A stretch of 28,994 nucleotides of DNA from the IMG/VR virus record IMGVR_UViG_3300014208_000107, positions 1-28,994 of that record, one strand, 5' to 3'. The translations under genes and the position numbers were made by a program. This document shows, in pieces, positions 1,250-23,699 of this stretch. Numbering within the stretch: position 1 is the first letter of the stretch; every line of letters begins with the position of its first letter. The notes below the pieces were generated by a model. That model did no database searches. It was not told the origin of the DNA and saw only the letters and a program-made list of their open reading frames with translations. Source of the DNA: a virus (Duplodnaviria; Caudoviricetes).

Positions 1250-1612
1250 ACAATGCAACATAATAAACAACTAACTAGTGCTAGAAGCCCCTTTTAAAAA
1301 TTGACATTGATTAGTTATTTAAGCCATGTATATTTTTGACATTGATTATTTACTCATAGTTGTATTGTTTTCAGTTATTTGTATTTGCTTATTCATAGAA
1401 TGCTTGGTTATTCTCAGTATCCTTCTCTAAGTGTTCTATTGTACTTAGTAAAAATATATTCTTAAAAAGGAGAAGATTGCCAAGAGGCAGCTGAGATTGG
1501 AGTAAGAGCCCAGAAATAGTAAGTCAATATAACAGAGATTATAAAGACCAATCAATGTCAATAATAAAAAGGGGATACTAACACTAGTTATATGTTTATT
1601 ATGTTATATTGT
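1250..1612. repeat. 63-bp imperfect inverted repeat (1250-1312 / 1550-1612) around a 237-bp spacer
   Basis: Ungapped manual alignment gives 53/63 identity. Confidence 0.9.
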
Positions 1613-1668
1613 ATCATTGTTTATTGTTATCGTATTTAATTGTTGCAACTTAAATAACTAATCAATGT
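1304..1668. repeat. perfect 20-bp inverted repeat ACATTGATTAGTTATTTAAG (1304-1323 / 1649-1668)
   Basis: Exact reverse-complement match. Confidence 0.9.
1321..1347. promoter_or_regulatory. 27-bp palindromic motif copy
   Basis: AAGCCATGTATA-TTT-TTGACATTGATT; right half perfect. Confidence 0.75.
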
Positions 1669-1686
1669 AAAATTATTATGTTGATT
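1660..1686. promoter_or_regulatory. 27-bp palindromic motif copy
   Basis: AATCAATGTAAA-ATT-ATTATGTTGATT. Confidence 0.7.
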
Positions 1687-1856
1687 GCCTATCGGCAGTG
1701 GCCGTTTTAAATGCCCAGCATGGTCAATCAATTTTATTGCCCATAACATTGTATTGCCCGACAATTAAAATTGAATGTGGGGCATCCTCGCATGAAATTC
1801 CGCCACATTCACAATGGGTTATAATGATGTTCGCCAACACAAGCTGACAAGCAACT

Positions 1857-1883
1857 AATCAATGTTATTAATTGTAATTGATT
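1857..1883. promoter_or_regulatory. 27-bp palindromic motif copy
   Basis: AATCAATGTTAT-TAA-TTGTAATTGATT; outer dyad CTAATCAAT/ATTGATTAG is perfect (1855-1885). Confidence 0.75.
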
Positions 1884-1898
1884 AGAACAATAGGCAAT

Positions 1899-1925
1899 AA
1901 AAAAGGGGAGGTTGTTAGCCTCCCC
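1899..1925 (-). terminator. intrinsic terminator, possibly bidirectional
   Basis: GGGGAGG-7 nt-CCTCCCC-TTTTTT on the minus strand just after the stop at 1932; T-rich tail on the plus side too. Confidence 0.85.
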
Positions 1926-1931
1926 TGTTTG

Positions 1932-2312
1932 TTATTCTACTTCTTCGTAAGTCTTACCAAACGCTGTTTCGAGGGCTTTGATAGTGGAAGTGATTGTTTT
2001 CTCGTCTGCTCCACTTTCCAGAACCTTGCGGCATGCTGTCGTGAAGGCGTCTGCCCTTGTACGGTCTACCTTCGGCATCCCTTCCATCAACCATACCCAC
2101 TTGTCGGCAAAAAGGTCTGCCCACTTTTTGCTGTCCTTCTCATTGGCCGTGAGTCTGGAGATGAGGACAAACAATCCGTAATTGGCGAGGTATTTAGTGG
2201 AAGCTTCGGGAAGGTCATCAATTCCTTCACCGTTTACCGTGGTAATGTCTTCCACTTTCAGCAAACCTGCGACACCGTACTTCTTATTGATTTCAGATAT
2301 TTTTTCTGACAT
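1932..2312 (-). CDS. 126-aa hypothetical early protein in its own transcription unit
   Basis: AAAGGAG RBS, own promoter and terminator, locally high GC. Confidence 0.9.
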   Translation of the reverse strand: MSEKISEINKKYGVAGLLKVEDITTVNGEGIDDLPEASTKYLANYGLFVLISRLTANEKDSKKWADLFADKWVWLMEGMPKVDRTRADAFTTACRKVLESGADEKTITSTIKALETAFGKTYEEVE

Positions 2313-2342
2313 GATAGTACTCCTTTAGTATTATGGTATTTA

Positions 2343-2400
2343 CGCCACATCATTAGATATTCTAAGCCGATATGTCGGCTGGCGGTAACTAATGATGGCG
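2343..2400 (-). promoter_or_regulatory. structured 5' leader (9-bp stem enclosing a 6-bp hairpin)
   Basis: CATCATTAG/CTAATGATG (2348-2356/2389-2397), AGCCGA/TCGGCT (2365-2380), flanking CGCC/GGCG. Confidence 0.65.
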
Positions 2401-2410
2401 GTGTATTTAA

Positions 2411-2423
2411 TTGTCAAAGAGCA
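2411..2423 (-). promoter_or_regulatory. boxA-like antitermination element
   Basis: TGCTCTTTGACAA versus rrn boxA TGCTCTTTAACA, located just after the predicted start site. Confidence 0.65.
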
Positions 2424-2441
2424 TATTTACTTTATGATTGG

Positions 2442-2469
2442 ATTATACATTAATGGATAGTAAAGTCAA
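2442..2469 (-). promoter_or_regulatory. sigma70-type promoter
   Basis: TTGACT-16 nt-TATAAT. Confidence 0.7.
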
Positions 2470-2672
2470 TCATTATATTTATGGCACTAATGCTTCAAGA
2501 AATACCTCACCCCCACCGAGCACCAGAGGGGTACTTGAGTGGATTGAAGACCAGTCCCTCAGAACACACACCAAGTTTTTAAAAAGGTAACTTAACCACT
2601 ATGTGAGCACTCTGTGGTATCTGTGTATTAAGAACAGTTAAAAAATATATTTCACGCAAGCGTGTGGGAGAA

Positions 2673-2701
2673 TTGACAACTCCGTCAAAAAGTGGTATGC
2701 T
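2673..2701 (+). promoter_or_regulatory. sigma70-type promoter at the head of the late arm
   Basis: TTGACA-17 nt-TATGCT with extended -10 TG; overlapped by dyad TTGAC-N6-GTCAA. Confidence 0.65.
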
Positions 2702-2735
2702 ACTCGCAAAAGATGTTATTAGGATTTGTATACAG

Positions 2736-3182
2736 ATGACCCCAGAAGATACCAAAATGATGATTGACCTTTTAGCTGATGGTATGAAGCAAAGAGATGT
2801 TGCTAGTATCATAGGAGTATCTGGAGTTACTATTTCCAACAAGTTGAGAGAACTTAAGCAAGAAGAATCCAACTTGTTAGCTTATGATAAGAATAGGTAT
2901 CTTGACCTAATTCAAGTACAACAAAGAATAATCGCAAATGTTACTGATGAGAAGTTAGCTGCTGCTCCGGTACAGCATCTTGCCTCTGCCTACGCTCAAT
3001 TTGGTAAGATGGAACAATTGATTCAAGGGAAGCCTACTGAGATACATGGATTGATGGGTTACCTTTTACACTTGGAGAAAGAAGATATTGAGAAAGCAAA
3101 TGATGTTGTGGATAACAGTGATGCTGTTGACGCTTCTTTTGTTTCCCCCTCCTCTCCTGAGCAACTTACATTGGACTTATAA
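2736..3182 (+). CDS. N-terminal HTH DNA-binding protein; terminase small subunit candidate or regulator
   Basis: HTH pattern MKQRDVASIIGVSGVTISNKL, helical body, acidic tail, first gene of the arm containing terL; start placed after the promoter (2736 or 2757, uncertain). Confidence 0.6.
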   Translation: MTPEDTKMMIDLLADGMKQRDVASIIGVSGVTISNKLRELKQEESNLLAYDKNRYLDLIQVQQRIIANVTDEKLAAAPVQHLASAYAQFGKMEQLIQGKPTEIHGLMGYLLHLEKEDIEKANDVVDNSDAVDASFVSPSSPEQLTLDL

Positions 3183-3183
3183 T

Positions 3184-3423
3184 ATGAGAGATTTCTACGG
3201 AAAGAAGCCTTTATTGAAAGTGATTGATACGATTGGTGACATAAGTCAGTATATTAGTCCCAATCCACCTGTTCCTGTGATTACTCCTAATCAACCCTCT
3301 GACGCAGAGAGGAAAGAGATTAACAGATTGATGAAGAAGCATGGAGTTAAGACTGCGATAAATGATCCGAACTATCCAACTCCTTACTTCTTTAGAGATG
3401 GACAGAAGGTTAAGTTTCAATAG
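3184..3423 (+). CDS. 79-aa proline-rich hypothetical protein
   Basis: ATG 1 nt after the previous stop; fills the gap exactly; start shortened from 3088. Confidence 0.7.
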   Translation: MRDFYGKKPLLKVIDTIGDISQYISPNPPVPVITPNQPSDAERKEINRLMKKHGVKTAINDPNYPTPYFFRDGQKVKFQ

Positions 3424-3432
3424 GATTGATTG

Positions 3433-4929
3433 ATGCCCTTACTAACTGATGCACTTAGAGGAATTGCTGGAGCAGTTAAATCAGATGCTTTGAAAGAAGC
3501 GGAGAGATTGCTTGCTCCTAAAAGTGGGTTCTTCTCTAAGCTAGAAGATGTCGCAGGCGGATTGAACTTTACTAAGATGCCATCTACACAACTGAAAAGT
3601 GCGGTAGAAGGAAGGGGAGTATCTCCTACTGAGTATCAGAATGTGTTAGGTTCCGTTGAGGGTACTGTTAATAAAGAAGAAGTTATGGGAATGATTGGGA
3701 AGAATAAGACTGAGTTGAAGGATGTGGTGCTTGGTGATAAAGTAGATAAGTTATCTGTGGATGAACTTAATGACTTCCATCGTCTTAATACTTTGCAAAG
3801 AGAATTTACTCCTGATGAAATGGCTAAGTATGATTTCTATGAAAGTGAACTTAAAAGAGCAGATAATTTAAAACCTCACTACGAACAATACTCAGAACCT
3901 GGTTATATTCCTGGTTCTTATAGAGAAAGATTTATTACGGCTCCAGAAGCAGGAAAATTAGATTCTTCTGTAAATGATGCAAACAGAAGAAATGGTTGGG
4001 ATATTAAAGTTCCTTTTGAAGAAAGTAAAGTAAAGTGGCAAGACGGTCACTCTGCTTACTCAAACATTCAGAATCCAGTAGTCAGACTAAGGACTAATGA
4101 TAGGGAAGTAGGTGGAAAGAAAATACTCTTTGTTGAGGAGATGCAAGAACCACTTAAAAGTACTGGTGACCTTCAAAAGATGCCTAAATATTTGCAAGAA
4201 AGAACTTATGATTTAGGAGTTAAAAAGGCATTGATGCTTGCTAAGGAAGGTAACTATGATGGTATTGCATGGACTACTGGAGAGATGCAAGTTGCTAGGT
4301 ATCCTCAGATAAGGGAGTTTGTAGATAACATTAGTTGGACTAAAACAGGAGAAGCAAAGGTAATAAATATTAAACTTAAAAGCGGTCATAACGATTATGA
4401 GACTGCTGTTATAAATAAAGATGGTATAGTAGAAGAAGGTAGAAAAGAGTGGATGAATAAACATATTGCTCAAATCTTACCTAAGAAAACTTCTGAAGAA
4501 ATACTAACTGCTAGTGGTGGACATATTAAAGGTGAAGATATTACTATCGGAGATAAAGGTTTAAAAGATATCTATGATAGAAAACTTCCTTCTTTGTTTA
4601 AGAAGTACGGGAAGGAAGAGGTTAAGGAGATTCCTTTAGTAGAAGAAAAGGTATCTAAGTTTAATAATTATGCAATATCTCGAAATAGCCAAGGAAGATA
4701 TTTAGTTTATAATCCAGAAGATCCAATGACCGAGGTAACAAGTTTAGGTACTAAAGAAGAGGCAGAAAGGTTTTTAAGTGGTTTAAAAAAGATGGATACT
4801 AAGAAAGGTGTTAAAGTCCCTTACATCCCCATCACCCAGAAGACTCCATCTCGTCATCCAGTCTACTCATTCATACCTCCAACATTAGCTGGGATAGTAT
4901 CTATGTATGATAAGGAGCAAAGACAATGA
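3433..4929 (+). CDS. 498-aa protein resembling a domain of large phage polyvalent/virion proteins
   Basis: Motifs FFSKL, YRE, GH..RLRTNDR..GKKILFVEEMQ, KKAL..A.EGNYDGIAWTTG..Q..RY, YD..LP recognised from memory; ATGA overlap with terL. Confidence 0.6.
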   Translation: MPLLTDALRGIAGAVKSDALKEAERLLAPKSGFFSKLEDVAGGLNFTKMPSTQLKSAVEGRGVSPTEYQNVLGSVEGTVNKEEVMGMIGKNKTELKDVVLGDKVDKLSVDELNDFHRLNTLQREFTPDEMAKYDFYESELKRADNLKPHYEQYSEPGYIPGSYRERFITAPEAGKLDSSVNDANRRNGWDIKVPFEESKVKWQDGHSAYSNIQNPVVRLRTNDREVGGKKILFVEEMQEPLKSTGDLQKMPKYLQERTYDLGVKKALMLAKEGNYDGIAWTTGEMQVARYPQIREFVDNISWTKTGEAKVINIKLKSGHNDYETAVINKDGIVEEGRKEWMNKHIAQILPKKTSEEILTASGGHIKGEDITIGDKGLKDIYDRKLPSLFKKYGKEEVKEIPLVEEKVSKFNNYAISRNSQGRYLVYNPEDPMTEVTSLGTKEEAERFLSGLKKMDTKKGVKVPYIPITQKTPSRHPVYSFIPPTLAGIVSMYDKEQRQ

Positions 4930-6425
4930 CTCTAAATCCTAACATACTAAACAAAATAACTCAATGGAAAACAGATGCTGTCGCATTCGTTGAGGAAGTG
5001 CTTCTAGTAAACAAACCACATATAAAAATATCTACTCAACAAAGAGAGTTCTTAGCAGCACTTCCTCATCAGAAACGTATATCCATTAGATCTGGACATG
5101 GTACTGGTAAAGATGCATCTGCTTCATGGGCAGTGTTGTGGTTTCTTTCCACAAGAGTATACTCTAAGGTGGTATGTACCGCTCCGACTGCCCGCCAGTT
5201 AAACGATATTCTCTGGTCAGAGATAAGCAAATGGGCTAGAGATTCAGCAATTCAAGAAGAGTTTATAATTCAGCGAGATAAAATCTTCCATAAAGGTGCA
5301 CCAAAAGAATGGTGGGCTCGCGCGGTTTCACCTTCAGTTAAGGCTGATCCCGCAGACCAAGCTGAGACTCTCGCAGGTTTCCATGGAGACCATCTCCTAA
5401 TAGTTGTTGATGAAGCTTCAGGTGTTGAAGACCCAGTATTCATACCTATTGAAGGTGCTCTGACACAGGAAGATAACAGAGTTATGTTGATTGGTAACCC
5501 AACTAAGAATAAAGGATACTTCCATGATACTCAATTCCACCCAGAAATATGTAAGCAGTGGCATAGACTCCACTGGGATAGCAGAGACTCTGAAAACGTC
5601 AAGCCTGACTATCCTTCTTATATGGCTAATAAGTACGGCGTTGATTCTAATGTGTTTAGAATACGTGTTGCTGGTGAACCGCCGCTTGAAGATGAGAGAA
5701 CGCTTATACCACTACACTGGGCAGAGCAGTGCATCGGCAAAGAAATGGAAATTAGTGATGAGGAGCCTATTTACTTAGGTTGTGACATTGCTCGATATGG
5801 TGAAGATAAGAGTATTATACTCCCACGGCACGGGTTGCGAATTCTTCCTTGGTTAACTTTTCAGGGTATGAATACGATTACACTAGCTGGGCACATAATG
5901 CAGACCTATGGTGAGGTAAATGCTGAAGGCTGTGGGATTGATGTTATAGGTGTGGGTGCTGGAGTTGCGGATTATCTCAGAAAACAAAGAATGCCTGGGT
6001 TGTTTGATGTGAATGTTAGTTGGGCATCATCAGATCCATTGAAATATGCTCTATTACGAGATGAACTCTGGTGGAGAATTCGTGAAAACTGTATGTATGG
6101 GTACTATTCTTTTCCAGATGTGAAGTTACCTGGTGAGACTCTCAGTATTGGTCAAGAATTAGCCAATGAGTTGTCATCTCCCTATTACGAGTTTAATAAA
6201 AATGGTGCTGTTAAGGTGGAATCTAAGAAGGATATGAAGAAAAGAGGGATTGCATCTCCGAATATTGCAGATTCCCTTGGTATTACTGAGTTTTTCTACT
6301 CATATTCTACTAAGATTTTTAGAAAGAAAGTAGTTGTTGATAAAAGTAAGTATAACTATCCTAGACCTTCTATTAACTCAGCAAGGAAAAGGATACATGG
6401 TGCTAATAACTGGATGACGGTATAG
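4926..6425 (+). CDS. terL: terminase large subunit
   Basis: Walker A SGHGTGKD, Walker B LLIVVDEA, coupling motif IGNP, nuclease LGCDIARYGED...SPNIADS. Confidence 0.95.
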   Translation: MTLNPNILNKITQWKTDAVAFVEEVLLVNKPHIKISTQQREFLAALPHQKRISIRSGHGTGKDASASWAVLWFLSTRVYSKVVCTAPTARQLNDILWSEISKWARDSAIQEEFIIQRDKIFHKGAPKEWWARAVSPSVKADPADQAETLAGFHGDHLLIVVDEASGVEDPVFIPIEGALTQEDNRVMLIGNPTKNKGYFHDTQFHPEICKQWHRLHWDSRDSENVKPDYPSYMANKYGVDSNVFRIRVAGEPPLEDERTLIPLHWAEQCIGKEMEISDEEPIYLGCDIARYGEDKSIILPRHGLRILPWLTFQGMNTITLAGHIMQTYGEVNAEGCGIDVIGVGAGVADYLRKQRMPGLFDVNVSWASSDPLKYALLRDELWWRIRENCMYGYYSFPDVKLPGETLSIGQELANELSSPYYEFNKNGAVKVESKKDMKKRGIASPNIADSLGITEFFYSYSTKIFRKKVVVDKSKYNYPRPSINSARKRIHGANNWMTV

Positions 6426-6436
6426 GAGGATTAAGT

Positions 6437-6637
6437 ATGGAAGTAACAGTTATAGGTGATAAGCAAGAGATTATAGGGTTGTCTACTAATACTAGACCTT
6501 CCTTAACAGTAGCAAAAGCAGGTTCAACTTTTACTGAATTAGATACTGGTATGAAGTATGTTTGGAGCGGAACGGAGTGGGTTGAAGACCTGACAATGTA
6601 TAACGCTGTTAAGATGGCTCTTGAAGCTGCGACTTAA
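6437..6637 (+). CDS. 66-aa small phage protein (GLST..P..GSTF.E.DTG..Y.W...W type), possibly virion-associated
   Basis: AGGAGG RBS; short beta-rich motif familiar from phage structural regions. Confidence 0.7.
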   Translation: MEVTVIGDKQEIIGLSTNTRPSLTVAKAGSTFTELDTGMKYVWSGTEWVEDLTMYNAVKMALEAAT

Positions 6638-6647
6638 GGAGATATTC

Positions 6648-7046
6648 GTGGACACTTTCGTAGTTGGGAATATGGTGTGGAATGCTGGATTGGTAGGAAT
6701 TGCAGGATTTTTTGTTAAGAAATGGATGGCTGCAAGGGAAGTACGAGAGACGGAAATAAGAACTGAGGCACTAGAAGCAACCGCTAAAATAGCAACAGAT
6801 TTGGCAGTACGTCACGAGAGGTCTTGTGAAGATATTAAATCTGAGATTGGTAACAACAGAAATTTTTACGAGAAAACTTATAAAGACCTTAAACAAGATA
6901 TTAAAGAAATTGCTGGCTTACAAAGAGTTGCTAATGGTAGAGTTGGTAAGGTTGAAATTGGACTTGCTGTGTTATCTCAGAAACACGAGGATAGGATGAA
7001 TATAAAACAAAGGGTTACTGACCACTGTGTTGATGGAGGTTGTTAG
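6648..7046 (+). CDS. single-TM plus coiled-coil membrane protein of the lysis cassette (holin/antiholin- or i-spanin-like)
   Basis: AAGGAG before GTG 6648; hydrophobic N-terminus followed by KK and a coiled coil; adjacent to endolysin. Confidence 0.6.
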   Translation: MDTFVVGNMVWNAGLVGIAGFFVKKWMAAREVRETEIRTEALEATAKIATDLAVRHERSCEDIKSEIGNNRNFYEKTYKDLKQDIKEIAGLQRVANGRVGKVEIGLAVLSQKHEDRMNIKQRVTDHCVDGGC

Positions 7047-7351: not shown

Positions 7352-7782
7352 TGGGAGTAGATATTACAGGATTTGGCTCAGTCTTTGATTTCGCTGGTAA
7401 GGTAATTGATAAGATATTTCCTAACAAAGATGACGCAGAGAAAGCTAAGTTAGAACTATTCAAGATGCAACAAGCAGGAGAGTTAGCCGAACTAAATGCT
7501 TCATTACAAACTGCTCTGGCACAGGTAAATACTAATACAGAAGAAGCAAAGAATGCTTCGATATTTGTTGCTGGTTGGAGACCTTTTGTTGGTTGGATTT
7601 GTGGATTTTCACTGTTTTATAATTACATCTTTATGCCGTTTTACGCTTATAATGCTAACTGGATTTCAGTATCAGCACCAATAATGCCAGCACTTGATAG
7701 TGGTGAGTTAACTACTATATTACTTGGTATGCTTGGTCTTGGTGCAATGAGATCTTACGATAAGAAGAATGTTTGTAAATAG
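7351..7782 (+). CDS. 3-TM holin (GTA holin 3TM / DUF3154 type)
   Basis: FVAGWRPFVGWICG and LLGMLGLGAMRSYDK signatures; follows the endolysin. Confidence 0.9.
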   Translation: MGVDITGFGSVFDFAGKVIDKIFPNKDDAEKAKLELFKMQQAGELAELNASLQTALAQVNTNTEEAKNASIFVAGWRPFVGWICGFSLFYNYIFMPFYAYNANWISVSAPIMPALDSGELTTILLGMLGLGAMRSYDKKNVCK

Positions 7783-7796
7783 GTTCTGCAGAGCCA

Positions 7797-7840: not shown

Positions 7841-7859
7841 ACCATAAAAGGAGAGTATA

Positions 7860-7970
7860 ATGGGTGCAAGTTGCTTAAAATCTGTACTGAAAAGTATGGC
7901 AAAGAGTGATAAGAAGGTTAAGATTAAAGAAGTAAGTCGTGGTAAAAAGATTGCTATGCCACGCAAGTAG
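7860..7970 (+). CDS. 36-aa highly basic peptide (MGASCLKSVLKSMAKSDKKVKIKEVSRGKKIAMPRK)
   Basis: AAAGGAG RBS, codon style like neighbours; below ORF-track cutoff. Confidence 0.7.
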   Translation: MGASCLKSVLKSMAKSDKKVKIKEVSRGKKIAMPRK

Positions 7971-7991
7971 TGTCAATAATTAACATTGATT
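7965..7991. promoter_or_regulatory. 27-bp palindromic motif copy before the portal gene
   Basis: AAGTAGTGTCAA-TAA-TTAACATTGATT. Confidence 0.75.
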
Positions 7992-8005
7992 AGGACTATA
8001 TTACT

Positions 8006-9964
8006 ATGAATTATACAGAACCAACTACACTTGGATCTCTTGAAGTAAGTCAAGAAGATACAGACTTGTTGAATAAGTTAACTAATTGGCTTAAACAAAC
8101 TGAAGGTTCGGATAGTGAAAGTCTTTGGTTAACTGAAGCAGAAGAAGATTATGCTTTCTATGCTGGTGACCAAGATGATACAGTTACACTACAGAAATTA
8201 GCTGATGCTAATAGACCTGCACTTGTGTATAATCAAGTTAAACCAAAGGTAGATGTTGTAGTTGGTTTGGCTGGCCAGAATAGACAGTTACCTTCTGCCT
8301 TCCCTGTAGAACATAATGATGAGGCACTTGTTGAGTTAGCTAATGGAGTTATTAAATTCTTCAGAAGAGAATCTATGTTGGCTGACAATGAGATGACTTG
8401 TTTTGAACACACTGTAAAGAGTGGCAGAGCCCTTATGCACTTCTATGTAGATGATGAGAATCCATTTGAACCGCAGATTAAGACTCGCTTCGTTCATGGG
8501 CGCAATTTTAAGATTGACCCACGGAGTATTAACTATGACTTATCTGATGCAAGATTTATTTTTATAGACTTTTGGTATGATAAAGATGAGATTAAAACTA
8601 AGTATCCTAACTTTGACTTTGAGAAGGTAACACAGTTACAGAGTACGCAATCTGGTGCACCGCTATTCTACAATGCTATTGAAGATACTTATAGAGTAAC
8701 TGAATGTTGGTATAAAGAAGCTGCAGAAGTTTACTGGATTACTAACCCTGTTACACAGCAAGTTGAGAAACTAAACGAAGCATCTTTTAAGAAAATGAGA
8801 GATGCAGTTAGAATAGGATTCACCTTACCTAATGGGCAGGTTATTAAAGATGAGAAGTTTGATGGAATTAAGAAGTGGAGTACAGTTTGTAAGTATGCAA
8901 TCTTCTCTAATTGCTATGTCTTTGCTAAAGGTATCTCATCACATAGATGGGAAGGTTACCCAGATGTTCTGTTTGGTGCTTATAAACATGATACAGAGAA
9001 CAGATGGTTTGGTCTTATCTCTATGATGAAGGATCCGCAGAAGGGAGTTAATACTATGCGGAGACAAATGCAGCATCTGTTACAGACCTCTCCTAAAGGT
9101 ATCCTAATGCACGAAGTTGGTTCTATACTTGACATAGAAGCTTATGAATCTAAGTCTGCTGAACCTAATTACCATATGGAGTTGGCACAAGGTGCTTTAC
9201 AAAAAGTTAAGTTTACTGACCAACCATCTATTAGTCCTGTGTACTCACAACTGATGGTTGCTGACGAGCAGTTTATTAAAGATGTTTCAGGTATTCAGAA
9301 TGATACTCTTGGTATTCAGACATATTCGAGAGAGCCTGGAATAACTACACAGTTACGTCAAGGTCAGAATATTGCAATACTATTTATATTACTTGATAAT
9401 TTTAAGCGTAGTCGTTTGTTAGCTACAAAAATACTATTCTCATTTATTCAACAATATGTTACAACTGAAAGAGTTATTAGAATTGAAGGACAGAATGGGC
9501 AGCAATTATTACAACTTAATACACAAAACAACCCTGGAAGTCCGGGCTTTAATGATATCAGTATTGGTAAGTATGACTTCTTTGTTGAAGAAGGAATTGA
9601 AACAGTCAACTCTAGAAATTCTCTTGCTCAGTTGCTTACTGATATCAGTCATAATAACCCAGGTTCTGTTCCTCCTGAGTTAATTATAGAATATTCTGGT
9701 GCACCATTTACTGTAGTTCAACAGTTGAAACAGTACAGTCAACAGATGCAACAGTCTAATATGCAAGCACAAAAAGAGAAAGAACAAAGGGAGTATGAAC
9801 TGGAAATGGCAAAGATGGAGAATCAGAGATACATAGCAGTCATTAATAACATGGCTAAGTTAATGACCTCTGATAAGCAAATTGATGCTAGTATTTTAAA
9901 CACTCTTCTGGCTGGAGTTCAGAAAGAGAAACAATTAACTAATAAGGGAGAGAACAATGAGTGA
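8006..9964 (+). CDS. portal protein (P22-like)
   Basis: EDYAFYAGDQ...RPALVYNQVKPKVDVVVG, KDPQ..N motif, Gln-rich C-terminal barrel, 652 aa, lies before scaffold and MCP. Confidence 0.9.
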   Translation: MNYTEPTTLGSLEVSQEDTDLLNKLTNWLKQTEGSDSESLWLTEAEEDYAFYAGDQDDTVTLQKLADANRPALVYNQVKPKVDVVVGLAGQNRQLPSAFPVEHNDEALVELANGVIKFFRRESMLADNEMTCFEHTVKSGRALMHFYVDDENPFEPQIKTRFVHGRNFKIDPRSINYDLSDARFIFIDFWYDKDEIKTKYPNFDFEKVTQLQSTQSGAPLFYNAIEDTYRVTECWYKEAAEVYWITNPVTQQVEKLNEASFKKMRDAVRIGFTLPNGQVIKDEKFDGIKKWSTVCKYAIFSNCYVFAKGISSHRWEGYPDVLFGAYKHDTENRWFGLISMMKDPQKGVNTMRRQMQHLLQTSPKGILMHEVGSILDIEAYESKSAEPNYHMELAQGALQKVKFTDQPSISPVYSQLMVADEQFIKDVSGIQNDTLGIQTYSREPGITTQLRQGQNIAILFILLDNFKRSRLLATKILFSFIQQYVTTERVIRIEGQNGQQLLQLNTQNNPGSPGFNDISIGKYDFFVEEGIETVNSRNSLAQLLTDISHNNPGSVPPELIIEYSGAPFTVVQQLKQYSQQMQQSNMQAQKEKEQREYELEMAKMENQRYIAVINNMAKLMTSDKQIDASILNTLLAGVQKEKQLTNKGENNE

Positions 9965-10889
9965 TGCAGCAACTGTAGTAGAAACTGTAGTTGGTGGAGG
10001 GTTAACTGTTGAAATGGTTAATCAGATGCAAGAGGAGATGAATCCTATTGGAGAAGATACAGTAACAGATACTAAAGTGGTTGAGGATACTGCTAAGGTT
10101 GTAGAACCTAAAGTAGTAGAGGATACTAAAGTAGTAGATGATGCTGTGAAGGATAAGGTAGTTGACGATGGTAAAGCAAAAGAACCTGCTGAAGAAATCG
10201 ATCCAGTTAGAGAACTAAGAGAAGCTAATCGATTACTCACAGAGAATCTTCAAAAGGTTACTAGCGACTATCAAGCACTTACCAAAAAGATGATTGATAA
10301 GGGCGTTATATCAGAGGAAGAATTGAAAGCAGATAAGGATCTAGCAGATGCTAACTTAAAAGCTTTTCAAGAACGCCAGACAAAACTGACTGAAATAGTT
10401 GCAGTTATGGAAGTTAATCCTATTTATCAAGACGTTCGGACAGTTTGTACGCAAGCTAACTTGGACGATATAGTTGATGCTTTTGCAAGATACTATATCA
10501 AGGAAAACGGTGGAAATCTGCAAGATGTAGCAGTTAAAATGGAGCAGGAAATTTGGCAAGAACCGAATCCTTACAAGAAGATTTATGAACTTGTAAAGAC
10601 TTATCATCCGAAGTATAAAGTTGTGGAAAAGAAAGTGGATGAAAAGACTGAAGCTGAAAAAGCTAAGGAAGCGGAAGAGGCTGCCAAGAAGATTGCTACT
10701 GATGCAGATAAAGGTAAAGAGAAAAAGGTTGTTGAAGTTACTCCGTCAGCAGCGACTATTGGTGCAGGTGGGAGTGGTGCAGGAAGTAGTGGATGGACTG
10801 CTGCGAAGATTGACGCACTTCCTGAAGATGAGTTACATACTGTTCCTAAAGATATTTATGAAAAGTATCTATTAGGGCAGATTAATTAA
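9957..10889 (+). CDS. capsid scaffolding protein
   Basis: Acidic, helical, between portal and MCP, short C-terminal helix-loop-helix after a Gly/Ser linker. Confidence 0.8.
   Translation: MSDAATVVETVVGGGLTVEMVNQMQEEMNPIGEDTVTDTKVVEDTAKVVEPKVVEDTKVVDDAVKDKVVDDGKAKEPAEEIDPVRELREANRLLTENLQKVTSDYQALTKKMIDKGVISEEELKADKDLADANLKAFQERQTKLTEIVAVMEVNPIYQDVRTVCTQANLDDIVDAFARYYIKENGGNLQDVAVKMEQEIWQEPNPYKKIYELVKTYHPKYKVVEKKVDEKTEAEKAKEAEEAAKKIATDADKGKEKKVVEVTPSAATIGAGGSGAGSSGWTAAKIDALPEDELHTVPKDIYEKYLLGQIN
10068..10172 (+). repeat. five KVV(E/D) repeats in the scaffold N-terminus
   Basis: DTKVVEDTAKVVEPKVVEDTKVVDDAVKDKVVDD. Confidence 0.8.
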
Positions 10890-13459: not shown

Positions 13460-14083
13460 ATGAAAGTTGAAGGAAGAGTTGGTGTAATTGATGCGGACAG
13501 CGGTTCTACTAATCCGCTTGTTACTCACACAGACGGTTCGTTAGTTGTACGAAATAGTGCTGCTAAGTATGCAGATGCAGTTTTAAAGGGTAATGTTTAT
13601 GTTGCTTGTAACCAAGCAGCTGTTGCTCTTACTGCTGCAATGGCTACCACTTACACAGGATTAGTACTGTTTAATCCTGCTACTTCTACTAAGAACTATG
13701 TAATTCTTGGTGCAGGTTATGCTACCACAATAGCAGTTCCTACAGCCACAGTGATTGGTTTGATGACTGGTACAGTTGTTACGGCAGCTACGATGGATGC
13801 AGCAGCAGCTATTACTCCTCGTAATAGATTGGTTGGTACTGCGAACTCCTCATCTGCAATCATTGATAACGCTTGTACACTGAATGGAACTCCTGTGCTA
13901 GAGCAAGTGTTTGGTAGTGCATGGTGCGAAGCAACAACTGCAGGTACGACTGGTCCGAATACTTGGGCAAACATCGATGGTTCTTTGATTATTAAGCCCA
14001 ATTCCTATGTTGCATTTTACAGTTTTGCAGCAAATACTGCGGCATTTATTTGCTCAATTCTGTGGGAAGAAGTTGATGTTTAA
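13460..14083 (+). CDS. beta-rich virion structural protein
   Basis: AGGAGG RBS; Ala/Thr-rich; ends WEEVDV; in the head module. Confidence 0.6.
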   Translation: MKVEGRVGVIDADSGSTNPLVTHTDGSLVVRNSAAKYADAVLKGNVYVACNQAAVALTAAMATTYTGLVLFNPATSTKNYVILGAGYATTIAVPTATVIGLMTGTVVTAATMDAAAAITPRNRLVGTANSSSAIIDNACTLNGTPVLEQVFGSAWCEATTAGTTGPNTWANIDGSLIIKPNSYVAFYSFAANTAAFICSILWEEVDV

Positions 14084-14108
14084 GCATCGTAAATAATTGA
14101 CATTGATT
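14082..14108. promoter_or_regulatory. 27-bp palindromic motif copy at the head/neck junction
   Basis: AAGCATCGTAAA-TAA-TTGACATTGATT; right half perfect. Confidence 0.8.
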
Positions 14109-17099: not shown

Positions 17100-17100
17100 G

Positions 17101-18369
17101 ATGACAACTCCGTATGATGATAGTTTTACTGGTGCTGATAGTTCGGCAATAAATGCTGAAAGGTGGATTGTTGATGGTTCTCCAGATATTCAGGGAAATA
17201 CTGCTGAACTTACATATGGAGAAAGAATTACAAATGTATATTATCTTACTGGTGATTTTGATATTCAAGTTGATTTTGCCATGCAAAGTGAACCGGCTAC
17301 AGATGCATGGAATTACATGCTTCACTGTTACATAGATGCTACTCATCGCATTGGAGTTGGACCTGAGTACGAGAGTTCTAGAAAGTTTACCTGTCGTTAT
17401 GCTGCTGGTGGAAGTTATACATCAGCAAATGTTGCAAGAACAAATACCTATGGAAAACTAAGATTAGTTAGATCTGGTAGCAATATAACTGCCTATTACG
17501 CTGATGGTACGGGAGAATTTACAGCACTTGGAACTACTCATGTTGTTGGAAGTAATTCAGTACAACCATTTATATTCTCTACAAGATGGACAGGAACTCC
17601 TACTCCTACTTGTAGATTTGATAACTTCTTAATTAACAGTGGTTACACAGCACCTTCACTAACAGTTACATCTGGAGTACTTGCTGTTGCTGGAACTAAC
17701 ATAACATTAAAGTTATCTAATACTCATTTCTTTGTAGAAAGTGGAGCACTTACAATAAATGGAACTGCAGTTAATCTTCAGTATAAGACTTGGGCAGAAC
17801 AAAATCATGCTCAAATGTTTATTCCTTATTTAACTGGAGATGCAGCAAATTCAGGATTAGTAGTTGACTTACCAGTTCTAACTTTTGAGTCTGAAGGTTA
17901 TACAGGAATTACTGCTTATCTTACAGAAACTTTACCTGTATTAGAAAGTACAGGAGAGAGTAGTGTTTGGAGTTCAAGTGAAGTAGATTTACCTTTATTA
18001 TCTAGTACTGGTGAATCTGGAGCAATGGCGAATTTTGACATTGATTGTTTAACGTTAAGTAGTACTGGTTATCTTAATGAAATAGGTGAGTTAAGTGAAA
18101 CAATTACTATTGTAAGTTTATCTTCTACTGGTTACTTAAATGAGACTTGTAGTTTAGATAGTTCTTTACAAGTAATTACACTTGAAGCAGAAGGTACAAC
18201 CAGTTTATTAGGTTCTTCTTCTCTTACCTTACCTATGCTGGAAGTCTCCACTATAAGTGGTTATATGATTCCAGTTGGAACAGGAAGTATAACATTACCA
18301 GTATTAGCAACAACAAAGTGCGGTGGGGTTTCTGGAAGATTTAAGTATCCAGTTTACAATGACTTATAA
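17101..18369 (+). CDS. fibre-like protein: N-terminal lectin/jelly-roll-like domain plus beta-repeat C-terminus
   Basis: DD.F......W, LTGDFDIQVDF, KLRLVRSG..ITAYY, FDNF pattern of concanavalin-like folds. Confidence 0.7.
   Translation: MTTPYDDSFTGADSSAINAERWIVDGSPDIQGNTAELTYGERITNVYYLTGDFDIQVDFAMQSEPATDAWNYMLHCYIDATHRIGVGPEYESSRKFTCRYAAGGSYTSANVARTNTYGKLRLVRSGSNITAYYADGTGEFTALGTTHVVGSNSVQPFIFSTRWTGTPTPTCRFDNFLINSGYTAPSLTVTSGVLAVAGTNITLKLSNTHFFVESGALTINGTAVNLQYKTWAEQNHAQMFIPYLTGDAANSGLVVDLPVLTFESEGYTGITAYLTETLPVLESTGESSVWSSSEVDLPLLSSTGESGAMANFDIDCLTLSSTGYLNEIGELSETITIVSLSSTGYLNETCSLDSSLQVITLEAEGTTSLLGSSSLTLPMLEVSTISGYMIPVGTGSITLPVLATTKCGGVSGRFKYPVYNDL
18020..18046. promoter_or_regulatory. 27-bp palindromic motif copy inside a CDS
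   Basis: GAGCAATGGCGA-ATT-TTGACATTGATT (8/12 + 12/12). Confidence 0.7.
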
Positions 18370-18388
18370 AATTTAGGAGGATAATATT

Positions 18389-18823
18389 ATGGCAGCTTTT
18401 TTAAAGTTCAACAAATTTTCACAGTCTCTTTGCAAAGGGTTATTTGGGGATCTAGAATCAGATACACTTAAGTTTGCACTGACTAATACAGCACCAACGG
18501 CAGCAACTGACACAGTATTTGATGTAGTTACAAAACATCCTGCACCTGCAGCAGCAAATGGTTATACGTCTGGTGGGCACGCAGCAACTATATCAGGTTC
18601 AGCAGAAACAGGTGGTGTGTATACACTTGCCACTACTACTGATGTTGTTGTTACTGCAACTGCTGGCGGAATTGGACCTTTCAGATATGTTATTCTGTAT
18701 GACACAGCAGGTACGTTACCACTGATTGGTTACTGGGATTACGGCAGCAGTATAACACTGGCAGATGGTGAGACGTTTACTATTGATGTTACTACTTCAC
18801 TATTTACGATTACAACAACTTAA
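18389..18823 (+). CDS. small virion structural protein
   Basis: LK.AL.N.AP...NGYTSGG...GPFRY.ILY...LIGYWDYGSSITL..GETFTI, a familiar phage structural pattern. Confidence 0.7.
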   Translation: MAAFLKFNKFSQSLCKGLFGDLESDTLKFALTNTAPTAATDTVFDVVTKHPAPAAANGYTSGGHAATISGSAETGGVYTLATTTDVVVTATAGGIGPFRYVILYDTAGTLPLIGYWDYGSSITLADGETFTIDVTTSLFTITTT

Positions 18824-18849
18824 TTATACGTTCAATATACGGAGTAGAT

Positions 18850-19104
18850 ATGAAAGAATATTTTAAGAAAAATGGTTTCTGCACAGTACCAGAAGATCGT
18901 GAGGATATGTGTTGTTATTCTAAAGTACATCACGACAGCCCTTTCCAAGCGTGTGAATTTCAGCATGACGGAATGAAGTGTAGTTGTCCAAAAGATAAAA
19001 GTCCCGTCCCTCAAGAAAAAATGCCTGAGATTAGAACCTGTTCAGTAGTTTTATCCGAGGAAGCTAAAAAATTCATAGAGGATAATTACGATGCTGACAC
19101 TTGA
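18850..19104 (+). CDS. 84-aa Cys/His-rich hypothetical protein
   Basis: GGAG RBS; 7 Cys and 3 His. Confidence 0.65.
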   Translation: MKEYFKKNGFCTVPEDREDMCCYSKVHHDSPFQACEFQHDGMKCSCPKDKSPVPQEKMPEIRTCSVVLSEEAKKFIEDNYDADT

Positions 19105-19618
19105 ATCAAAATTTAGCGATTACATAAAAGTTCTTACGGGTGCGGGTGCTTGTGAATCTGTAATGGAATTTCACAATGCAATGATTAAGAAAAATCCTTT
19201 TCTTACTGTTGGTGACGCTTATAAAATATTTTTTGATGATTCCAGTTTCAAAGAAACATGGGTTGAGTGGGCGTTAAAACTTGTAGGCAAAGAACTCGAT
19301 ACGGAAATCAGAAAGATAGCTATAAACAAGATTCAAAGTCCCGTTACCGCAAAAAAACTTCTCTCTAATTGTGATTTCTTTACTACCGAAGAAAAATCAC
19401 TTCTATCCACATTAGCAGAGAGTCAAACCGAAATACAGAAATTAGTTGATTCAATTACCGAGCCTATGGAAGCCGCACGACTGTTAATTGATTTCCCCCA
19501 TTTAACCGACACACAGGAACTTACTTTAAAGGCTAAATTTGAAGGTCGACTCCCAACTGTAGAGAAAGAACTTTTAACAGGAACTGTTGTAACAGCTAAA
19601 TCTCAGGTGGTGAAGTAA
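19091..19618 (+). CDS. helical hypothetical protein with internal 41-aa duplication
   Basis: GAGG RBS; TAATG overlap with the next gene. Confidence 0.75.
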   Translation: MLTLESKFSDYIKVLTGAGACESVMEFHNAMIKKNPFLTVGDAYKIFFDDSSFKETWVEWALKLVGKELDTEIRKIAINKIQSPVTAKKLLSNCDFFTTEEKSLLSTLAESQTEIQKLVDSITEPMEAARLLIDFPHLTDTQELTLKAKFEGRLPTVEKELLTGTVVTAKSQVVK

Positions 19619-20196
19619 TGGCCGTTACTGATTATAAATATGCTGGAACTGCCGCCAATGTTGATAGGGATGGTAAGGCCGATTGGAATAATCCCGACAA
19701 CGCCAAGGCAGACGATGCGAATAAATCTTCCACAAACAATATAAAAAACACTTATAGCGATTGGCTAAGACTTACTAATTTTGGATTTTCTTCTGCTGAT
19801 ATTCCAGATGGCTCAACTATAAATGGAATAGAGTTTGTTATAAAAAGGTCTGTCTCTAATGACCCGACCTATACTCGTACTGACCACGCATTATATTTAT
19901 ATGATGATGGTGCTGTCGGTAATAACATGGCTTCTGGCACAAACTGGCCTGTCTCCCCAGAGGCAGAGGCTACTTATGGCGGTGCGACTGATATGTGCGG
20001 CACTTCTTTAACACAAGCGGATATAGTCACTTCAACATTCGGCATACAATTATCAGTATATAGTAATAATAGTAGCGGGTCTGTATTTACGGTTAATTCC
20101 ATCAAAATCAGAGTTTATTACACAGAGGGCGGCGGAGCAACAAGTTTACCAACAAGACTTTTTAAAAGAAATTACAATCATATCTTAGTAAGGTAG
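19618..20196 (+). CDS. jelly-roll-type virion protein
   Basis: W.NP.NA...D, L.LTNFGF...IP.G.TINGI, YGG.TD, I.IRVYY pattern; basic C-terminal tail. Confidence 0.65.
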   Translation: MAVTDYKYAGTAANVDRDGKADWNNPDNAKADDANKSSTNNIKNTYSDWLRLTNFGFSSADIPDGSTINGIEFVIKRSVSNDPTYTRTDHALYLYDDGAVGNNMASGTNWPVSPEAEATYGGATDMCGTSLTQADIVTSTFGIQLSVYSNNSSGSVFTVNSIKIRVYYTEGGGATSLPTRLFKRNYNHILVR

Positions 20197-20205
20197 GAGG
20201 AACAA

Positions 20206-20673
20206 ATGGGAAGAATTTATACAGCACAATTCAGTGCAGTTGCAGTTTCAGCAGCTCAAGATTTATTTGAAGTTGTTGCACCAGCAGATGGTATTGTAGT
20301 AGTGCATGACATCTTCATTGGGCAGACATCTGACGTAGGTGATGCAGCTGAGGAAATACTTTTAATTAAGTGGAACTCAGGAGCGTCAACAAGTGGTTCT
20401 GGAGGTGGTTCATATACACCAGTACCAATACTGTTTGGTGATGCAGCTTTTGGTGGAACCTGTGAAATAAATAACACTACACAAGCTGCTGATGGTACAA
20501 TAGTAACTCATCATGCATGGGCTTGGAATATAAGAGCACCACTGCAGATTATATTTACACCTGAAACTAGACCAGTATTATCGCCAAGTAGAAGAGGAGT
20601 ACTTACTATTCCTGCTCCTACTGATGCACTAACTATGATGGGAACTATCACACTTGAAGAAATAGGTGGATAA
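20206..20673 (+). CDS. small beta-rich virion protein
   Basis: AGGAGG RBS; ends TITLEEIGG; structural context. Confidence 0.6.
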   Translation: MGRIYTAQFSAVAVSAAQDLFEVVAPADGIVVVHDIFIGQTSDVGDAAEEILLIKWNSGASTSGSGGGSYTPVPILFGDAAFGGTCEINNTTQAADGTIVTHHAWAWNIRAPLQIIFTPETRPVLSPSRRGVLTIPAPTDALTMMGTITLEEIGG

Positions 20674-21818
20674 TGGCAGGAGTCTTTCGACATAGGCCTA
20701 GGATTATAGGATGGAGATTATCTCCTTCTTTGCTTTCTACACATATAGCGGGTGCTTATACTCTTTCGGTAGAATCTGGTTCTATGGTAGTTACAGGTAC
20801 TGCTACTACATTAAAAGCAACCAGAAAGTTACCATTAGTAGCAGGAACTATAGTTATAACTGGTACAGTAATATCTACTGAGTATGGAAGAAAGTTTACT
20901 GTAGAGTCTGGAATTCTAACTATAGATGGGCAATCTGTTGAAGTAAAGAATGCGCGAAAACTTCCTATTATGTCAGGAGAATTAACAATACTTGGTACAG
21001 TTACAGACTTACTAGGTACAAGGAAACTTTCTATTTCTTCTGGTATTATTACTATAGGTGGAACAAGTATAGGTATAAAGTCAACCAGAAACCTTACTGT
21101 TGCTTCAGGAGAACTAGTAATAGATGGTACAACTACTACTTTAATAAGTGATAGACTTATACCTATTTTAAGTGGACTTATTACTATAGATGGACAAGCA
21201 ACTGGTTTAAGGAATGCACGTAAACTTAGTATAGTATCAGGCGGACTAACTATAGATGGCACTGCAATTGATGTTAGGTATGGAAAGATACTATCTATTG
21301 CCTCTGGTGAGTTAACTACAGCTGGACAGGTTATTACACTGCAGAATACACGAAAGTTGTCTATTGTTTCTGGTGACTTAAGTGTCCTTGGTACAGTGGT
21401 AAATTTACTAGGTGGTAAAAAACTAACTGCTAGTGCTGGTACTATTACCATTAATGGAGCAGTAGTTACTTTAAAGCCTACACGTAAATTAACTGTTAGT
21501 TCTGGAGTAGTAACAATAACTGGTATAGCAGTTAATACACGCACAGCAAGAAAATTAAATACTGCAACGGGTGCACTTACTATTGATGGTACTGCAATAA
21601 CACTTAACTACACGCCATCAATAGGTGAAAGATTAGAAATCAATAGTGGTGTTATTGCTATAACTGGTTCTGATTTGTACTTTGAAATTACAACTTCTGA
21701 TTTAGATACTGAACCTTATCTCTTAAAGTATAGAAGACCTCGGCCAGTTAAAAGCCATATAACTGCATTAAGCACAGAAGCAGCAAATCCATTTACTCTG
21801 GAGTATAGAAGACCATGA
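20673..21818 (+). CDS. 22-aa tandem-repeat fibre/solenoid protein
   Basis: 13 in-register repeats xRKLxIxSGxLTIxGxxxxLxx plus one degenerate copy. Confidence 0.85.
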   Translation: MAGVFRHRPRIIGWRLSPSLLSTHIAGAYTLSVESGSMVVTGTATTLKATRKLPLVAGTIVITGTVISTEYGRKFTVESGILTIDGQSVEVKNARKLPIMSGELTILGTVTDLLGTRKLSISSGIITIGGTSIGIKSTRNLTVASGELVIDGTTTTLISDRLIPILSGLITIDGQATGLRNARKLSIVSGGLTIDGTAIDVRYGKILSIASGELTTAGQVITLQNTRKLSIVSGDLSVLGTVVNLLGGKKLTASAGTITINGAVVTLKPTRKLTVSSGVVTITGIAVNTRTARKLNTATGALTIDGTAITLNYTPSIGERLEINSGVIAITGSDLYFEITTSDLDTEPYLLKYRRPRPVKSHITALSTEAANPFTLEYRRP

Positions 21819-22327
21819 TAGCTTTTGGACTAAGATTAAATACAAAACTTAAAGCAACTACTCAATATGTAGGATACAACTTCAACAGTTTGTGTTGTTT
21901 TAATAATATAATACTTGGTGGAAATACTTCTGGTATCTTTGTTACTGGTGGAGATACAGATAACACAGTAGCAATCCTCTCATTCTTTAAAACTTTCTGT
22001 ACTGACCTCAACACTTCAAAGAATAAGAACATAAGGTCAGTAGAGATTAGTGGAGTGTTTCCTAAATTATCTGTTATTACAGTAATGGATAGTGCAGAGA
22101 AAACAACTTATAATACTTTACAAGATTCTACTCTTGAACAAAAGACTATTGATATAGCTACTAACCACGCAGATAGTGGTAAGTACATTGGTATTAAAGT
22201 ATCTAATATTGAAGGTTCAGATTTCAGTATAGATAACATTAATCTTGTAGTGGGAGCAACACAGAAACTTAATTATAGCGATGCGATAGTAGGAAGAACA
22301 AGAGTTGAACTTCCTACTTTGACTTAA
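21815..22327 (+). CDS. virion structural (tail/nozzle-associated) protein
   Basis: T.Y..YNFNS...GI....G.TD....I...F.T..D...K..R...N..G.DF.ID pattern; ATGA overlap. Confidence 0.6.
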   Translation: MIAFGLRLNTKLKATTQYVGYNFNSLCCFNNIILGGNTSGIFVTGGDTDNTVAILSFFKTFCTDLNTSKNKNIRSVEISGVFPKLSVITVMDSAEKTTYNTLQDSTLEQKTIDIATNHADSGKYIGIKVSNIEGSDFSIDNINLVVGATQKLNYSDAIVGRTRVELPTLT

Positions 22328-22337
22328 GGAGGATGTT

Positions 22338-23699
22338 ATGACTTTACCTACTCATGGTTTACAGGGATACGGTAATACAGCAGTTAATTTAGCTAGTACT
22401 AAGTTTACAGCTGCTGCTGCAGAAGCTACCGCAGCATTAGTTAGTGCAAATGAGTATTTAAGTAATTTGGGTATTGAAGCAACTAGATTAGATGCTCTTG
22501 CCGCTAAAATTAACTATGTTAATTTAATTGGCGATCTTGATATAACAGCAGCAGAAATGGGAGATGTTGGTGAAGCACCTAATGATGCAGACTTAGATGC
22601 TATTCCTGATATTCCTACTAATCCAGGAATTACATATACTACTTATACATTCGATAAGGAACTTACTTTAAGTATTGCATTTCCAGATAAACCTACGTAT
22701 CCTGCTCTTGATGAAATACCTGTTGTTGTTGCAGATACAATTGTATTACTTGAAAGTAAGATTAATACTAGACTTACTGACGGAGCAACAGGATTAGATG
22801 CAGATATTGAAGCAGCAATATGGGCAAGAGCAAGATCTAGGCAGGAACTTGAAAACATCAATAAGTATCAAGAGGTTGAAAACTACTACTCTTCTCGGGG
22901 CTTTTCTATACCCCCTGGAACCTTATCAGGAAAACTTAATGAATTACTTATTGAGTTTGCAAGGAATGATAGTTATCTTAATAATGATATTCTTGTTAAA
23001 CAAGCAGAACTTGCAATGCAGAATGAGAATGTAATGCTTGAATCTGGAATAAAGTATATTATTGAGAGACTTACACAAAATGCATCTGTTATTATTGAAG
23101 GTAATAAATTAAAGATACAAGGTTATCTTGGAGAACTTGAAGGTTATAAAGCAGAAATACAAGCAGAGATTGCTAGGATAGAAGCTTTAACAAAAGTCTA
23201 CATGGCTGAGTTAGAAGCATATAAAGGTAAGATTGAAGCAGAAGCTGTTCGTGTCGAATCAATGTCAAAAATTTATATTGCTGATACGCAGGTCTATACT
23301 GCTACGGCAGATGCTATTGTTAAAACTTATCTTGGTAGAATTGAAGCTTATAAAGGAAGGATTCAAGCAGAGTCTGCTAAGGTAGATGCTGTTATTAAGT
23401 CTCTTGACTTAGCACTTAGACAGGTTATTGCTATTGCAGAAACAGATATGAAAGAAGCAGCAATTGATTCTGAGAATTTAAAGAATGCTACTGCTTTAGC
23501 AATAGAACTTACTAAAGGTGGTGCACAGATTGCTGCTCAGTTAGCAGCTAGCGCAATGTCCAGTGTTAATGCTAGTGCTACTATTGGTGGTTCTGGTAAC
23601 GAAGGAACTAATATTAATGAAAGTTACAATACATCTGAAGATACTACTAAAACAGATGCTACAACTTCACATAACTATAATTACAATGCGAGTGTATAA
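22338..23699 (+). CDS. long coiled-coil virion protein (needle/stalk-like)
   Basis: AI..RAR..E, RGF..PPG.L motifs; 25/18-aa Y..(L/I)E.YK..I.AE repeats. Confidence 0.7.
   Translation: MTLPTHGLQGYGNTAVNLASTKFTAAAAEATAALVSANEYLSNLGIEATRLDALAAKINYVNLIGDLDITAAEMGDVGEAPNDADLDAIPDIPTNPGITYTTYTFDKELTLSIAFPDKPTYPALDEIPVVVADTIVLLESKINTRLTDGATGLDADIEAAIWARARSRQELENINKYQEVENYYSSRGFSIPPGTLSGKLNELLIEFARNDSYLNNDILVKQAELAMQNENVMLESGIKYIIERLTQNASVIIEGNKLKIQGYLGELEGYKAEIQAEIARIEALTKVYMAELEAYKGKIEAEAVRVESMSKIYIADTQVYTATADAIVKTYLGRIEAYKGRIQAESAKVDAVIKSLDLALRQVIAIAETDMKEAAIDSENLKNATALAIELTKGGAQIAAQLAASAMSSVNASATIGGSGNEGTNINESYNTSEDTTKTDATTSHNYNYNASV
23257..23283. promoter_or_regulatory. 27-bp palindromic motif copy inside a CDS
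   Basis: AATCAATGTCAA-AAA-TTTATATTGCTG (12/12 + 8/12). Confidence 0.7.

Follow-up and report, generated by a model that had tools for sequence, protein, structure and literature searches.

Nine dispersed 27-base palindromes occur in a 28,994-nt stretch of phage DNA (IMG/VR record IMGVR_UViG_3300014208_000107; hereafter, the window), which is a 29-kb podovirus fragment covering the entire virus record. The palindromes are real, and related ones are spread evenly over the genomes of the family. The phage's own contig carries, outside the window, a gene for a protein in which a ParB N-terminal domain, a ParB-type helix-turn-helix (HTH) and a methyltransferase are fused, and one residue of the recognition helix co-varies with one base of the palindromes. 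On balance, we favor the reading that the palindromes are parS-like loading sites at which this fusion would clamp onto DNA, slide over a few kilobases, and methylate the phage genome in cis. It is very probable, judging from the sequences, that the fusion is the binder, with the two HTHs of a dimer reading the two TGTCAA halves; sliding and methylation by the fusion are proposed by analogy with its relatives.

Perfect copies of the half-site AATCAATGTCAA were found in reverse orientation at 1301, 1336, 14097, and 18035 and in forward orientation at 1550 and 23257, with imperfect halves at 1660 and 7980 (one mismatch each) and 1857 (two mismatches). Six perfect halves are far above the chance expectation for the window (0.004, 0.012, and 0.063 under Markov orders 2, 4, and 5, respectively), and the commonest 12-mer of any sort reached at most 4 copies across 200 simulated windows. 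The partner half agreed at 70 of 108 positions with a 3-nt spacer and at 15 to 40 positions with every other spacer between −4 and 19 (null, 31 ± 4.9; maximum, 58 in 100,000 draws). Scoring with the family position weight matrix (PWM) at a cutoff of ≥11 bits retrieved exactly nine dyads (Table 1), the weakest being that at 1550 (11.1 bits), and the reversed window peaked at 9.4 bits. A perfect 27-mer palindrome does not occur in the window, the best dyads carrying 4 mismatches. The coordinates, the rarity, and the exact 3-nt spacing given in a preliminary description of the window, made from its letters, thus proved correct, as did its placement of two copies over stop codons at gene junctions (7965 and 14082) and of two others inside coding sequences (18020 and 23257).

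Relatives were gathered through the capsid protein (65 loci) and through a conserved early protein (80 loci), never through the motif, and 46 records were retrieved complete or nearly complete. Dispersed dyads of this type were present as lineage-specific variants in 45 of 47 records (42 by one de novo search, G034 and G044 by another, and G003 by PWM). A reversed-sequence control was void for the de novo search; Markov-simulated genomes were used, and none of the 10 yielded a comparable motif. G005 and G006, initially scored as motif negative, turned out to carry variant motifs, which also occupy the place of dyad 7. The usual core is GTCAA-WWW-TTGAC, with CGTAA, GTTAA, TTTAA, TTCAA, GTACAA, GTCCAA, and ATACAC as variants. 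The 20 complete genomes harbor 8 to 16 sites each, with a median gap of 4.8 kb. In each of them the sites were spaced more evenly than at random, with P values of <0.05 in 11 genomes, also against a gene-junction null, with the caveat that combined P values are overstated by the relatedness of these genomes. Crude open reading frame (ORF) calls placed 159 of their 221 sites in intergenic regions or at gene junctions, and 140 of 291 co-directional sites lie directly at a stop codon. Sites before the portal gene, before the adaptor gene, and where the two arms meet persist despite changes in the motif itself.

The properties of this array narrow down what may read it. The stronger half showed no polarity with respect to transcription (130 upstream versus 120 downstream; P = 0.57). 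In line with what the preliminary description noted for TTGACA, a −10 element is not in excess at the correct spacing: 62 of 724 half-sites had one there (8.6%, versus 8.9% at shifted positions). Other lineages replace TTGACA by TTGACC, TTGAAC, TTACG, or TTGGAC. The two halves do not co-vary toward pairing, and true halves pair less than halves re-dealt inside each genome (3342 versus 3616 ± 23 of 4908), which is partly an effect of the detection threshold. A scan of GTDB with one 22-bp pattern gave only five single matches, in unrelated taxa. The absence of polarity, of half co-variation, and of a −10 excess, together with the isolated GTDB matches, suggests that the reader is a dimer encoded by the phage and acting on duplex DNA. 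The preliminary proposal stands in that the dispersed dyads are most likely bound, as duplex DNA, by a dimeric protein; its restriction to the late arm does not hold, since the sites are genome-wide. The TnrA/GlnR, IscR, IHF, matS, and PadR motifs presumably do not fit the dyads. As for candidate binders encoded by the phages, a ribbon-helix-helix (RHH) protein looked promising on five genomes and lost this support on more (only 13 to 15 RHH rows could be aligned), neither a terS-like HTH protein nor the first leftward gene of the window (1932-2312) gained support, and a gene at first seen only in motif-positive genomes is a DNA ligase.

The ParB_N/N6_N4_Mtase fusion (430 to 470 amino acids) is encoded in 42 of the 47 records, a frequency favored by record selection through a neighboring gene, and the remaining five records are fragments. 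It sits among replication genes, which makes progeny DNA its likely substrate. A 13,985-bp contig of run X2 that overlaps the left end of the window (Table 1) carries the full gene at 9404-10726, approximately 7.8 to 9.1 kb left of window base 1; two X2 matches were taken here as one record, as inferred from the common length and depth (26.1). The gene is also present in L142, which shares the control region and left genes of the window, and the two copies differ at 201 positions over 1323 bp. GGRR, ELEEN, DP, and DxxxG motifs are invariant across 105 homologs. The ParB-CTPase fold has its P motif (GxxR), with GGRR in place of GERR, and its EN motif. Profile searches matched CcrM-class methyltransferases and, over a stretch extending through the HTH, Spo0J, ParB, and Noc. 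The ParB-type HTH lies between the two Pfam domains, and the family profile gktrasv aligns on GKARSTV of Spo0J (1vz0). An AlphaFold model (mean predicted local distance difference test score, pLDDT, 86) shows a helix pair at the HTH and fold matches to beta-class N6/N4 enzymes; the HTH taken alone gave no structural match. In the methyltransferase domain, DPPY precedes FxGxG, which is the beta order, and both motifs are intact; beta-class methyltransferases work as dimers (PMC7544214). Search for k-mer bias revealed no methylation target. In G044 the gene (8206-9523) is split into two overlapping pieces, by a frameshift or an assembly error, and five sites are retained. DNA polymerase A with an N-terminal uracil-DNA glycosylase domain is found throughout the family (e.g., L086:8590-10977).

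The match between this HTH and the palindromes is suggested by a single line of evidence, co-variation. In G170-K171-S172-R173, R173 is a residue that sets the specificity of ParB versus Noc (PMC7383237), and the variable helix residue of the fusion aligns with the GKAR of Spo0J, i.e., with this specificity position. Near-duplicates (G012, G030, G032, G038, and G042), G003, and the window were omitted from the tests, and G020 was included from the base −7 column test onward. The helix tracked the motif core after control for Pol (r = 0.42; P = 0.002, the floor of 500 permutations; 32 genomes), and tracking was not significant for the ParB N-domain, the methyltransferase domain, RHH, the terS-like HTH, or eight other proteins. 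When base −7 was compared with 2,568 protein columns, the R173-equivalent residue ranked first (z = 8.7; runner-up, 5.4). Lysine pairs with G in 13 of 16 cases and arginine with T in 8 of 12, and the combinations K-T and R-G were never seen. Both states are scattered over both trees, and 5.4 to 5.5 of 6 independent contrasts pointed in the same direction, with 0 opposite.

This K/R rule, by which K goes with G and R with T or C, was fixed before it was applied to new loci, defined as those with a protein <90% identical to the training set or to each other (two were 80 to 86% identical to training). Among 100 loci given, 93 had the protein, 33 were new, and 24 of these had scorable sites. Half-sites at −7 read T28 C12 A8 G2 with arginine and G15 A6 C2 T0 with lysine. 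By locus, the arginine set gave T in 7, C in 3, A in 1, ties in 4, and G in 0, and the lysine set gave G in 5, A in 1, ties in 2, and T in 0, i.e., 7:0 and 0:5 for T versus G (P = 0.0013). The top GenBank match to the fusion protein (27% identity) is that of Desulfofustis phage MD01 (OP947158.1), which was assembled from a metagenome, has a host predicted from CRISPR data (PMC10370329), and gave no tblastn match to window proteins. Metagenomic methylation work on the community from which MD01 comes is cited in PMC10370329. Picked by its protein alone, MD01 displays nine dispersed TGCTATGTCCCAA-N-TTGGGACATAGCA dyads, a lysine helix, and G at −7. A ParB-type candidate binder also agrees with parS, one of the precedents named in the preliminary description.

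Modeled on ParB (PMC12704722), KorB (PMC11790492), and BisD (PMC12409273), the mechanism would run as follows. Site binding and a nucleotide, probably cytidine triphosphate (CTP), would shut the N-terminal gate and free the clamp from the site, as in ParB, Noc, KorB, and BisD. The beta-class methyltransferase may stand in for the C-terminal dimer domain of ParB, its own dimer closing the ring, and would modify adenine or cytosine of the DNA passing through. A site every ∼5 kb would hold the entire genome within sliding range. Progeny DNA would thereby carry a mark that protects it from host restriction or identifies it as self, and host DNA would be spared.

Several results weigh against this reading. 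Sliding has been demonstrated over 1.5 kb for KorB, below the 2 to 3 kb required here (PMC11790492), and is reported over ∼50 kb for BisD (PMC12409273). N6N4 fusions have been cloned, and none is named as a nucleoside triphosphate binder in the available text of that study, where the assay was run without cognate DNA (PMC12704722). G035 carries the fusion gene without convincing sites, and G036 has 4 weak candidates. The recognition helix was chosen by eye ahead of the test; an unbiased scan ranked it 4th of 3,140 windows, after three Pol windows (family-wise P = 0.09). Ten motif positions were tried; for one of them the single-column family-wise P value was ∼0.045 (4 of 110 permutations), and the remaining nine peaked in unrelated columns. 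Contrast tests gave P values of 0.03 to 0.06 (R versus not-G) and 0.125 to 0.25 (R versus T), and no protein column explained the outer-arm bases. The rule was read from relatives, and the helix letters of the window phage's own gene are not among them. Finally, GATC, CTAG, GGWCC, or CCCGG is strongly avoided in some relatives (ratios down to 0.03 to 0.07), and such continued restriction-site avoidance argues for a specific target rather than blanket protection.

The main rival is a KorB-like role of the same protein. The fusion would bind the sites and serve chiefly to regulate transcription at long range or to organize DNA, in the manner of KorB, BisD, or Noc, or it would methylate only beside the site, methylation being local or secondary. 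All the evidence on the binder applies equally to this alternative, which also draws on the five sites clustered in the control region and on the co-directional sites at stop codons. The small conserved RHH protein could act like KorA and lock the clamp; its gene (G001 7390-7629, G002 26577-26756, and homologs) lies upstream of a conserved gene of unknown function and encodes a candidate clamp-locking partner. The catalytic motifs are, however, intact throughout, sites overlap promoters no more than expected by chance, and the even genome-wide spacing suits coverage better than promoter control. We regard this alternative as rather unlikely, with a real share of the probability.

Improbable to a greater degree are stoperator- or operator-like sites for the RHH protein, the terS-like HTH protein (2664-3182), or an unrecognized phage protein, which would block transcription or pace packaging and ejection. 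The RHH and HTH genes are conserved, sites favor gene junctions, and the unbiased scan put a Pol window slightly ahead of the ParB helix. Against this, the array lacks polarity, correlations were not significant for the RHH beta-strand (r = −0.09; 13 genomes only) or the terS-like protein (partial r = 0.20; P = 0.14; 23 genomes), one RHH strand type coexists with different motifs (G013 versus G001), and the K/R rule predicted unseen loci. A Pfam scan of 119 ORFs from the complete relatives G002, G017, and G034, leaving out very short ORFs and those over stretch borders, found no CI-type repressor, integrase, or ParA, the lack of a Pfam match not being proof of absence. The stoperator or road-block role suggested in the preliminary description is thus not supported, and the HTH protein that it had named as a possible binder is placed before terL like a small terminase.

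Genuine partition sites of a plasmid-like prophage would account for the ParB fold, the parS-like geometry, and the lack of an integrase match, and N15 has dispersed centromeres. We deem this very unlikely, given that the same ORFs contain no ParA family match, that these phages have their own DNA polymerase, primase, and ligase, and that the C-terminal domain is an enzyme. Slightly less credible still is a host regulator or nucleoid protein. The CAA-WWW-TTG center common to most variants resembles Fis-type sites; motif variation follows a phage residue, and one of the five GTDB matches, L080, is a phage-like 7.6-kb contig with 92% identity to the window near the portal gene. L080 is placed in a GTDB Erysipelotrichaceae bin of 2.5 Mb, which has 10 loose motif matches versus 7 to 10 per 50-kb phage. 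L080 is probably a binned phage contig, and the host hint is weak at most. RNA or DNA hairpins (terminators or processing sites) or promoters, brought to mind by the palindromic form, the frequent position directly after stops, and TTGACA in the window's lineage, are largely refuted by the pairing deficit with its threshold effect, the missing −10 excess, and the loss of TTGACA elsewhere.

The window runs from a leftward gene stub through an A/T-rich control region to genes for the HTH protein, terL, holin, a P22-type portal, capsid, and an SU10-type adaptor. No close isolate was found for it (best terL identity, 37%), nor was an IMG/VR contig overlapping its left end when sought through ORF 441-899. 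Near-consensus sigma70 promoters with a TG extension at 1151-1123 (−) and 2673-2701 (+) drive the two arms; neither overlaps any dyad. The first leftward gene, 1932-2312 (−), has a sigma70-like promoter of its own (2469-2442), along with a bidirectional hairpin resembling a terminator (1904-1926). Its G+C content is visibly higher, and its product has 5 homologs, no family, and a weak likeness to the group's conserved early protein; it is a candidate first-expressed host-interaction gene. A 66-bp inverted repeat (83%) has arms at 1250-1315 and 1547-1612, separated by 231 bp, each containing one dyad and a TGTTTATTATGTT-like tract. It is retained in L142 and possibly represents an origin or packaging element; TTATTATGTTA repeats are present in the G002 control region. 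Contig depth in run X2 roughly doubles over 1602-3166 (55 to 62 versus 26 to 31), reflecting a terminal repeat or a stretch common to two strains, and run X1 gave a single flat contig across these positions.

Table 1. Palindromic dyads of the window and its overlap with the run X2 contig
Feature	Position	Strand	Score and context
Dyad 1	1286..1312		17.8 bits; perfect right half; control region; within left arm of 66-bp inverted repeat; half-site retained in L142
Dyad 2	1321..1347		27.8 bits; perfect right half; control region; half-site retained in L142
Dyad 3	1550..1576		11.1 bits; perfect left half, weak partner; within right arm of 66-bp inverted repeat
Dyad 4	1660..1686		17.6 bits; control region; perfect right half at this place in L142 and L069
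Dyad 5	1857..1883		20.1 bits; directly beyond terminator-like hairpin of first leftward gene; retained in L069, gone in L142
Dyad 6	7965..7991		27.4 bits; over stop of 36-aa ORF; 14 bp upstream of portal gene; same place in L001, L003, L005, L010, L012, and L080
Dyad 7	14082..14108		26.0 bits; over stop of ORF 13460-14083, upstream of SU10-type adaptor gene; same place in L001-L004 and L018
Dyad 8	18020..18046		24.8 bits; within coding sequence 17101-18369
Dyad 9	23257..23283		27.3 bits; within coding sequence 22338-23699
Overlap with 13,985-bp run X2 contig	1..1631	−	0 differences; depth 26.1

These findings give a widespread phage protein (at least 694 clusters at E ≤ 1e-10) a candidate DNA target and a recognition rule. 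If sliding and cis-methylation are true, they would represent a new way of telling self from nonself DNA, with the loading address taking the place of the target sequence, and would offer a natural scheme for directing a modifying enzyme to kilobase regions. More tentatively, and with slightly less than even confidence, we propose self-addressed epigenetic marking, in which a nucleotide-gated sliding methyltransferase clamp is confined to one genome by tiling sites and a one-residue helix code lets relatives switch address, each of them marking its own DNA alone. A literature search that left subscription journals mostly out of scope and took in supplements only of PMC12704722 found no pairing of a ParB-methyltransferase fusion with cognate sites.

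The closest known systems are ParB-parS and Noc-NBS, which share with the present one an N-domain of CTPase fold that bears GxRR and EN motifs, followed by an HTH with a GKxR specificity position (PMC7383237, PMC12704722), as well as a palindromic site of similar span with a TGT...ACA core. Here, in contrast, a 15-bp core with a 3-bp A/T center lies inside a 27-bp site, no ParA was found, the C-terminal domain is a methyltransferase, and the sites are distributed at even intervals along a phage of lytic appearance. KorB-OB of plasmid RK2 (PMC11790492) and BisD-bisS of ICEclc (PMC12409273) are ParB-family clamps of mobile elements that load at their own palindromes, slide, and act remotely, and BisD likewise bears an extra effector domain (PMC12409273). 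Both regulate transcription with a partner, whereas here the cargo is an enzyme predicted to modify DNA, and any partner is putative. The same domain fusion, ParB-CTPase/N6_N4-methyltransferase, is frequent in phages, with a suggested antidefense role (PMC12704722); the present family differs in its full ParB HTH and candidate cognate sites, and the available text of that source gives no site pairing, target, or function. Stoperators of mycobacteriophage L5 (Cluster A) likewise serve as protein-binding sites scattered in large number through short intergenic gaps, but they are asymmetric, oriented with transcription, and bound by an immunity repressor (PMC4351075), unlike the symmetric, nonpolar dyads of the present family. 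A precedent absent from the preliminary description is the orphan repeat TGTTCGG-NNN-CCGAACA (7-3-7) of the nontemperate Cluster O mycobacteriophages, which is dispersed, nonpolar, both intergenic and genic, and has an A/T center; it differs in its 34 near-invariant 17-bp copies, uneven spread, lack of an assigned binder in the text available, and unrelated phages (PMC4351075). Cluster O phages encode a ParB-like protein (Corndog gp90) and methylases (PMC4351075), so that by analogy their array may likewise consist of loading sites, a reading that the present case suggests for orphan dispersed palindromes of other phages.

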